From the NCBI RefSeq assembly GCF_024298765.1, contig NZ_CP101210.1: 64,000 bases of DNA; one strand, written 5' to 3'. The notes beneath the pieces were generated by a model. That model was not told where the DNA came from. It ran no database searches and saw nothing but the letters and a program-made list of their open reading frames with translations. How positions within the stretch are numbered: position 1 is the stretch's first letter; each line of letters opens with the position of its first letter. The position numbers were made by a program, and so were the translations under genes. The DNA is from Escherichia coli (lineage in GTDB: Bacteria > Pseudomonadota > Gammaproteobacteria > Enterobacterales > Enterobacteriaceae). Below are positions 31,471 to 31,496 of the stretch, piece after piece.

Positions 31471-31496
<26 letters not shown>
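30768..31496 (+). CDS. mpaA: Murein peptide amidase A (M14 zinc carboxypeptidase family)
   Basis: ORF 30708..31496; start preferred at MTVTRPRAERGAFPPG (242 aa). Confidence 0.93.

Follow-up and report, generated by a model that had tools for sequence, protein, structure and literature searches.

The 26-nt tail-to-tail overlap between the coding sequences of mpaA and ycjG in Escherichia coli is real, ordinary and already part of the standard annotation. It is found in a stretch of 64,000 nt (contig NZ_CP101210.1 of assembly GCF_024298765.1), which is called the window below. Probably the stop codons have drifted, neutrally or as a tolerated change, at an old junction that lacks a spacer; Rho would end the transcription of each gene within its partner, and the antisense by-products would be small.

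The initial annotation had described mpaA and ycjG as convergent genes with coding sequences overlapping by 26 nt, and this is borne out by the list of open reading frames, the raw sequence and RefSeq. The mpaA stop is the TGA at 31494-31496, in the list as well as in the raw sequence, and on the minus strand ycjG ends with a TAG, which appears on the plus strand as cta at 31471-31473. Both stops are situated within the coding sequence of the partner gene, and the overlap is exactly 26 nt long. It encodes (P)KDAIRPS* of MpaA on the plus strand and (F)TTGELHL* of YcjG on the minus strand. RefSeq gives the same 26-nt overlap in K-12 MG1655 (ycjG 1388930-1389895, mpaA 1389870-1390598) and in strain 104. 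Of 5426 complete E. coli genomes, 5414 contain an 86-nt junction probe, 4443 of them in identical form. A 1961-nt segment around the junction matches several complete genomes at 100% identity and is covered to at least 80% in 5413 of the 5426.

Both open reading frames are genuine protein-coding genes, as MpaA matches PDB 5HXD and YcjG matches PDB 1JPD at near identity. The 1JPD chain aligns to all 321 residues of YcjG, including the C-terminal FTTGELHL with L321 as the last residue. 5HXD matches residues 1-237 of MpaA, the crystallised chain ending at D237, and 3173 MpaA homologues were found at E <= 1e-10. Both stops are fixed by the frames that match the two structures. Since the overlap is set by the stops only and both frames are validated by structures, no re-evaluation of start codons can abolish it. 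Ten convergent junctions were counted in the window, using the annotation of a near-identical strain, and an overlap is present at two, with 26 nt for mpaA/ycjG and 4 nt for hslJ/ydbJ (4125-4128; hslJ ends at 4128 on the plus strand, ydbJ at 4125 on the minus strand).

Table 1. Features at and around the mpaA/ycjG junction, in positions of the window.
Feature	Position	Strand	Description	Source
mpaA CDS	30768..31496	+	murein tripeptide amidase, 242 aa	open reading frame list; RefSeq on the identical sequence in strain 104
ycjG CDS	31471..32436	-	L-Ala-D/L-Glu epimerase, 321 aa	open reading frame list; RefSeq annotation
Tail-to-tail CDS overlap	31471..31496		26 nt, phase (123:132)	sequence, frame arithmetic, translations
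Variable MpaA C-terminal tail H234-S242	31467..31493	+	past the last conserved residue, W233	15-genus alignment
p19-captured, RNase III-cut perfect duplexes in mpaA	30896-30917, 30951-30971			Huang et al. 2020, Table S3 (PMC7373196); sequences located here
C-rich, G-poor stretch of ycjG read-through RNA	31003..31160	-	C/G 1.4-1.8, 78-nt windows	
C-rich, G-poor stretch of mpaA read-through RNA (antisense to ycjG)	31620..31780	+	C/G 1.5-1.9	

The history of the junction was traced with an MpaA alignment of 15 genera, which was used to fetch 80 loci from species-representative genomes. Of the 32 gammaproteobacterial loci with an MpaA of at least 58% identity (Enterobacterales, one Vibrio and one Microbulbifer), 29 have a YcjG homologue directly after mpaA on the other strand, and no adjoining YcjG was found beside the remoter MpaA homologues (<58% identity) among the fetched loci. 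The two genes overlap by some length in 24 of the 29 paired loci. An overlap of 26 nt is present in E. coli, E. albertii and two Citrobacter, and also in two Pantoea, where it was reached independently via a longer YcjG tail. Eleven genera, including Enterobacter, Kluyvera and Pseudocitrobacter, have 10 nt, whereas Pluralibacter, Serratia, two Yersinia and Mangrovibacter have 4 nt; overlaps of 19, 21 and 29 nt occur once each, and the non-overlapping loci show gaps of 3, 9, 36, 72 and 160 nt. Judged from these loci, the tail-to-tail pairing is old and predates the diversification of the Enterobacterales, and the overlap length is not conserved.

In the alignment of the junctions, the distance from the W233 codon (TGG) to the ycjG stop is 1 nt less in Escherichia and Citrobacter than in all genera with a 4-nt or 10-nt overlap. 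This 1-nt frameshift past W233 changed the phase and carried the mpaA stop a further 16 nt into ycjG, so that an overlap of 10 nt became one of 26 nt. We infer that the 26-nt state is derived and arose by a 1-nt deletion, the direction of change being taken from the outgroups. With regard to a possible ancestral terminator, the outgroup spacers of Vibrio, Microbulbifer and Acerihabitans were folded as well; hairpins are present, and none is followed by a canonical U-tract.

The two protein tails that share the overlap differ in their conservation. The conserved core of MpaA ends with LLRW233, and the tails after it comprise 0-15 residues and have no common sequence in the 15 genera, so that the tail H234-S242 is probably dispensable. 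Enterobacteriaceae share a conserved YcjG tail, F-T-x-G-x-L-H-L. When E. coli is compared with E. albertii, the overlap shows a change of RP to LR in MpaA and only synonymous change in YcjG, and across Citrobacter four positions of the MpaA tail vary, as against E/Q alone in YcjG. Among these three taxa, the tail substitutions are nonsynonymous for MpaA and mostly synonymous for YcjG. Hence, the DNA of the overlap is governed by YcjG, with the MpaA tail as a passenger.

In length and phase the overlap can be compared with expectation. The mpaA frame meets 13 stops in 321 codons across the antisense of ycjG, one per 24.7 codons. As the MpaA run beyond W233 comprises 9 codons and is below this mean expected spacing, the overlap is no longer than chance would give. 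Its phase pairs codon positions 1-1, 2-3 and 3-2 and is the commonest among convergent overlaps of more than 4 nt (49% overall, 46% in E. coli; Lillo & Krakauer 2007, PMC2174442). The same study counts 58 convergent CDS overlaps in E. coli, with a rho-independent terminator in only 20% of the genes involved, and finds that a stop-codon-mutation model fits the overlap phases (PMC2174442).

That there is no room for an intrinsic terminator between mpaA and ycjG, as first proposed, agrees with the scans and folds, which show no trace of one. Neither a strict consensus scan nor a lenient hairpin-plus-U scan detected an intrinsic terminator at or near the junction. Folds of 201 nt gave nothing beyond chance on either strand (z = -1.4 and -1.0), the 46-nt folds of the junction resemble those of shuffled sequence (z = -0.09 and -0.55), and an inverted-repeat search at the junction also stayed at chance level. 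A palindrome of 5 bp, GCATC..GATGC at 31466-31480, is not conserved in Citrobacter. Known RNA families were not detected in 30400-33200 at E <= 1. At the gathering threshold, Rfam has no match in the mpaA-tyrR region; elsewhere in the window it identifies MicC (8210-8330, minus strand), FnrS (13141-13258, minus strand) and McaS (21191-21286, plus strand).

Without an intrinsic terminator, each polymerase would continue into the partner gene until Rho acts on the untranslated RNA. For the ycjG strand this step rests on published data, which place the end ~391 nt in; for the mpaA strand we infer it. Adams et al. (2021, PMC7815308, supplementary file 2) report a region of Rho termination for the ycjG strand that is antisense to mpaA and peaks at K-12 position 1390286. 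In the absence of bicyclomycin, coverage drops there from 47 to 14; in its presence, it goes from 58 to 68 (Rho score 3.94, p = 7e-5; PMC7815308), and as the drop is sensitive to bicyclomycin, it is Rho-dependent. The peak corresponds to window position 31080, 391 nt past the ycjG stop, and falls inside the C-rich stretch of the ycjG read-through RNA, which was computed here and is, by its composition, a possible Rho loading region. The published region is now tied to the 3' end of ycjG by this analysis. On the plus strand, the C-rich stretch downstream of mpaA is the predicted place where Rho might act on the mpaA transcript. Adams et al. annotate no Term-seq 3' end or Rho region to ycjG or antisense ycjG (PMC7815308), and mpaA and ycjG are not mentioned in the SMRT-Cappable-seq supplements.

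The expectation of the initial annotation that the convergent transcripts must overlap proved correct. In addition to the Rho region and to the RNase III-cut duplexes described below, ycjG-mpaA is listed among 165 convergent excludons detected in at least 50% of 58 RNA-seq samples (ExcludonFinder; Sanmartin et al. 2025, PMC12288877). In the same source, tpx-ycjG is one of 16 divergent excludons and mpaA-ycjG-tpx one of three 'noncontiguous operons', and its convergent list also contains ydbJ-hslJ and smrA-dgcM, which both lie in the window (PMC12288877). Transcript overlap at mpaA/ycjG is already published, and in E. coli it is the usual state of convergent operons, of which 276 of 370 (75%) overlap, by 286 nt on average (Conway et al., PMC4161252). 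A limitation of the overlap to 26 nt does not hold for the RNA: the actual antisense overlap amounts to hundreds of nt, which makes the 26-nt CDS overlap itself incidental.

The antisense RNA made by read-through gives rise to some double-stranded RNA, cut by RNase III and of modest abundance. The duplexes captured by p19 in mpaA (Table 1) are perfect, 21-22 nt long and of low abundance (~1-4 RPM; PMC7373196), and their sites show that antisense RNA reaches 500-575 nt past the ycjG stop. In the wild type, sense and antisense RNA amount to 51.2 and 10.0 RPM for ycjG and to 73.9 and 17.6 RPM for mpaA (PMC7373196). Calculated from these values, antisense RNA in mpaA reaches ~42% of the ycjG sense density, and antisense RNA in ycjG ~11% of the mpaA sense density. 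In the p19 data, dsRNA was found at 25-54 RPM for ycjG, 55-112 RPM for mpaA and 1563-5161 RPM for tpx (PMC7373196), placing mpaA and ycjG 20-100 times below the neighbouring tpx cluster. With an expression of 661 RPM for tpx, mpaA and ycjG are weak by comparison (PMC7373196).

From the overlap the initial annotation had derived a possible mutual antisense interference between the two enzymes. Its statement on the pathway, that the products of mpaA and ycjG catalyse consecutive steps in murein-peptide catabolism, is right, and for consecutive steps a reciprocal exclusion is implausible. Both genes are listed in the PgrR regulon, as ycjG and ycjY-ymjDC-mpaA (PMC5934670), and under a common repressor they would be co-induced, not alternated. 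In the mutants rnc-14 and rnc-38, sense RNA changes from 51 in the wild type to 39 and 33 RPM for ycjG and from 74 to 42 and 22 RPM for mpaA (PMC7373196), in a single data set that is normalised per million reads and was obtained in rich/standard medium, where PgrR presumably represses both genes; the genes next to mpaA and ycjG drop in parallel (PMC7373196). These rnc and regulon data weaken the idea of interference at mpaA/ycjG and, together with the weak expression of both genes, weakly contradict it. A literature search found no promoter-deletion or induced-condition experiment on the pair. Given the weak expression and the control by one repressor, the net effect of the antisense RNA on the output of MpaA and YcjG is probably small.

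The pair belongs to an alternating block, mpaA(+) ycjG(-) tpx(+) tyrR(-), at 30768-34646 of the window, which is conserved from Escherichia to Yersinia, Serratia, Hafnia, Pantoea and Erwinia. Pectobacterium is without ycjG, and mpaA and tpx are co-directional there and 95 nt apart; Acerihabitans is without tpx, and Erwinia psidii without both ycjG and tpx. The 43-nt gap between tpx and tyrR contains a perfect 16-bp palindrome (~33065-33101; ~-28 kcal/mol, z ~-7.4 on both strands). It resembles a bidirectional terminator, yet the whole tpx CDS is a top-20 p19 dsRNA cluster, which has been ascribed to read-through from tyrR to ycjG (Huang et al. 2020, PMC7373196). A Rho termination region is also reported at the 5' end of tyrR, ~18 nt inside, at K-12 1386738 on the plus strand (Rho score 2.2, p = 3.6e-5; PMC7815308), corresponding to ~34628 on the minus strand of the window. 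This points to attenuation of a transcript that, if not stopped, would continue across antisense tpx and into ycjG.

At the other end of the block, codons 7-13 of mpaA contain a hairpin, GCGCCG-AACG-CGGCGC followed by AUUU (30787-30807, plus strand). A strong Term-seq 3' end has been mapped 39 nt into the mpaA reading frame, at K-12 1390559 with a score of 27317 (Adams et al. 2021, PMC7815308). This end coincides with the hairpin and appears in the third condition sheet only, presumably that for M63 minimal medium. C. werkmanii keeps the hairpin, and so does Pseudocitrobacter, where both arms of the stem carry changes; elsewhere it is weaker. Possibly it acts as a premature terminator or an attenuator and limits transcription into mpaA.

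Further upstream, an intact gene for a 212-aa SDR-family oxidoreductase lies between ycjY and mpaA (29839-30477, plus strand), where K-12 has only the fragments ymjC/ymjD. In E. albertii and Citrobacter, neither the ycjY-SDR genes nor pgrR were found within 4 kb upstream of mpaA. In the window pgrR is intact (27811-28710, minus strand, 299 aa), whereas that of strain 104 is cut to 251 aa by an insertion of the ISVsa5 family (IS4-like); the mpaA-ycjG locus of strain 104 is 100% identical. A segment of ~1.06 kb at 19511-20566 is absent from the otherwise near-identical strain 104. It holds an open reading frame of 322 aa (19566-20534, minus strand), by eye a transposase of the IS5 family (IS903-like), and splits a gene for an AraC-family regulator into 19239-19520 and 20602-21120. 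With the intact pgrR, and with two IS events that differ, the assumption that the window equals strain 104 throughout was rejected.

Other explanations of the junction were weighed against stop-codon drift. The most serious of them, although unlikely, is a functional convergent excludon, in which the overlap was selected so that each gene damps the other by transcriptional interference and RNase III cleavage, and flux through the catabolic branch of murein-peptide recycling is capped or balanced. This would fit the listing of ycjG-mpaA among the convergent excludons, the cut duplexes inside mpaA and the antisense densities relative to the sense density of the partner. Both the convergent pairing and the alternating block mpaA-ycjG-tpx-tyrR are conserved very deeply, and excludon pairs show higher synteny than other neighbours (PMC12288877); this could reflect selection on the transcriptional architecture and counts against an origin as a by-product. 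However, exclusion would be physiologically senseless for consecutive enzymes of the same PgrR regulon, sense RNA does not rise in either rnc mutant, and the dsRNA stays far below that of the adjacent tpx cluster. Moreover, with three quarters of all convergent E. coli operons overlapping, overlap alone is no evidence of function. A wider proposal, which we regard as improbable, takes the 26-nt overlap as the outward sign of a larger transcription unit, conserved and doubly interleaved, that balances or couples four genes. One strand may comprise mpaA, antisense ycjG and tpx, and the other tyrR, antisense tpx, ycjG and antisense mpaA, and coupling by read-through RNA may have kept the alternating order across Enterobacterales. 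The proposal is based on the conserved block, the dsRNA cluster over the whole of tpx and the grouping by ExcludonFinder, and the gene losses in Pectobacterium, Acerihabitans and Erwinia psidii are informative for it. If true, the head-on traffic under PgrR derepression would be a built-in governor on murein-peptide catabolism.

A termination of both genes by head-on collision of polymerases at the junction has an equally low probability. The absence of an intrinsic terminator would agree with it, and a preprint proposes the model for hundreds of convergent pairs in E. coli whose termination is neither intrinsic nor dependent on Rho (bioRxiv 10.1101/2022.10.23.513370). It needs, however, a stem-loop in the nascent RNA between the gene boundaries and works best with high expression (bioRxiv 10.1101/2022.10.23.513370), whereas the mpaA/ycjG junction folds no better than its shuffled counterparts, both genes are weakly expressed, and the end on the ycjG strand is Rho-dependent and lies well beyond the junction. 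An error of annotation, with one stop or frame wrong and no true overlap, has next to no probability. Convergent overlaps of more than 60 nt are often misannotated 3' extensions (Palleja et al. 2008, PMC2478687), but the present one is far shorter and both frames are open to their stops; YcjG extends to its last residue in the crystal-structure sequence, MpaA has no earlier in-frame stop, and the same stops are kept in E. albertii and Citrobacter. We therefore favour stop-codon drift, by which the overlap would be a tolerated by-product of tight tail-to-tail packing and no dedicated regulatory device. Where no spacer exists, the position of a stop depends on where a stop codon falls in the antisense of the partner, and the overlap drifts or opens.

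The biological significance of the overlap itself is small, the CDS overlap being part of the standard annotation and the transcript overlap of published catalogues. New from this analysis is the history of the junction, with its drift between 4, 10 and 26 nt, the origin by frameshift and the MpaA tail riding on the constraint of YcjG. Should interference occur under induction, the pair would be a rare example of co-regulated enzymes that act in succession and limit one another, and this would bear on how E. coli partitions the murein tripeptide between recycling (Mpl) and catabolism. Strains with a truncated pgrR, like strain 104, would be natural derepression backgrounds for such interference.

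The junction shares features with several known systems. Bidirectional terminators between convergent genes have reportedly been described by Ju et al. in 2019. Like the pairs with such terminators (Wang et al. 2022 preprint), mpaA and ycjG are convergent and lack a canonical one-way terminator; they differ in that the required stem-loop is absent, the 16-bp palindrome belonging to the neighbouring tpx/tyrR. Closer is the Rho-dependent termination in the antisense of a convergent neighbour (PMC7815308), with which the ycjG strand shares the bicyclomycin-sensitive drop by a C-rich, G-poor stretch. The difference is that at mpaA/ycjG it is documented for the ycjG strand only. With convergent excludons (PMC12288877) the pair has in common that it is listed as one, that the transcripts overlap, and that dsRNA is detectable and cut by RNase III. 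Their defining property, mutually exclusive expression, is hard to reconcile with the shared PgrR control and the consecutive roles of the two genes.

Noncontiguous operons, reportedly described by Saenz-Lahoya et al. in 2019, have a similar layout, as mpaA and tpx flank the opposite-strand ycjG, and tyrR and ycjG flank tpx. A noncontiguous operon has been noted for tpx (Huang et al. 2020, PMC7373196). The grouping of mpaA-ycjG-tpx arises because ycjG overlaps its neighbours at both ends; it is stated at the level of catalogues, and a single transcript spanning mpaA through tpx is putative. If the three genes do form such an operon, all of ycjG would be covered by antisense RNA.

Convergent overlapping genes of prokaryotes are said to arise by loss of a stop codon or by a 3' frameshift, as reportedly set out by Rogozin et al. 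in 2002. The mpaA/ycjG pair agrees with the described cases (PMC2174442, PMC2478687) in having both stops inside the partner's coding sequence, a length below 60 nt and the commonest phase, and also in the traceable origin by a 1-nt 3' frameshift and the unconstrained tail of one partner. Nothing essential sets it apart from them; the pair is somewhat unusual in that both genes belong to the same pathway and in that their tight junction has persisted across the Enterobacterales.
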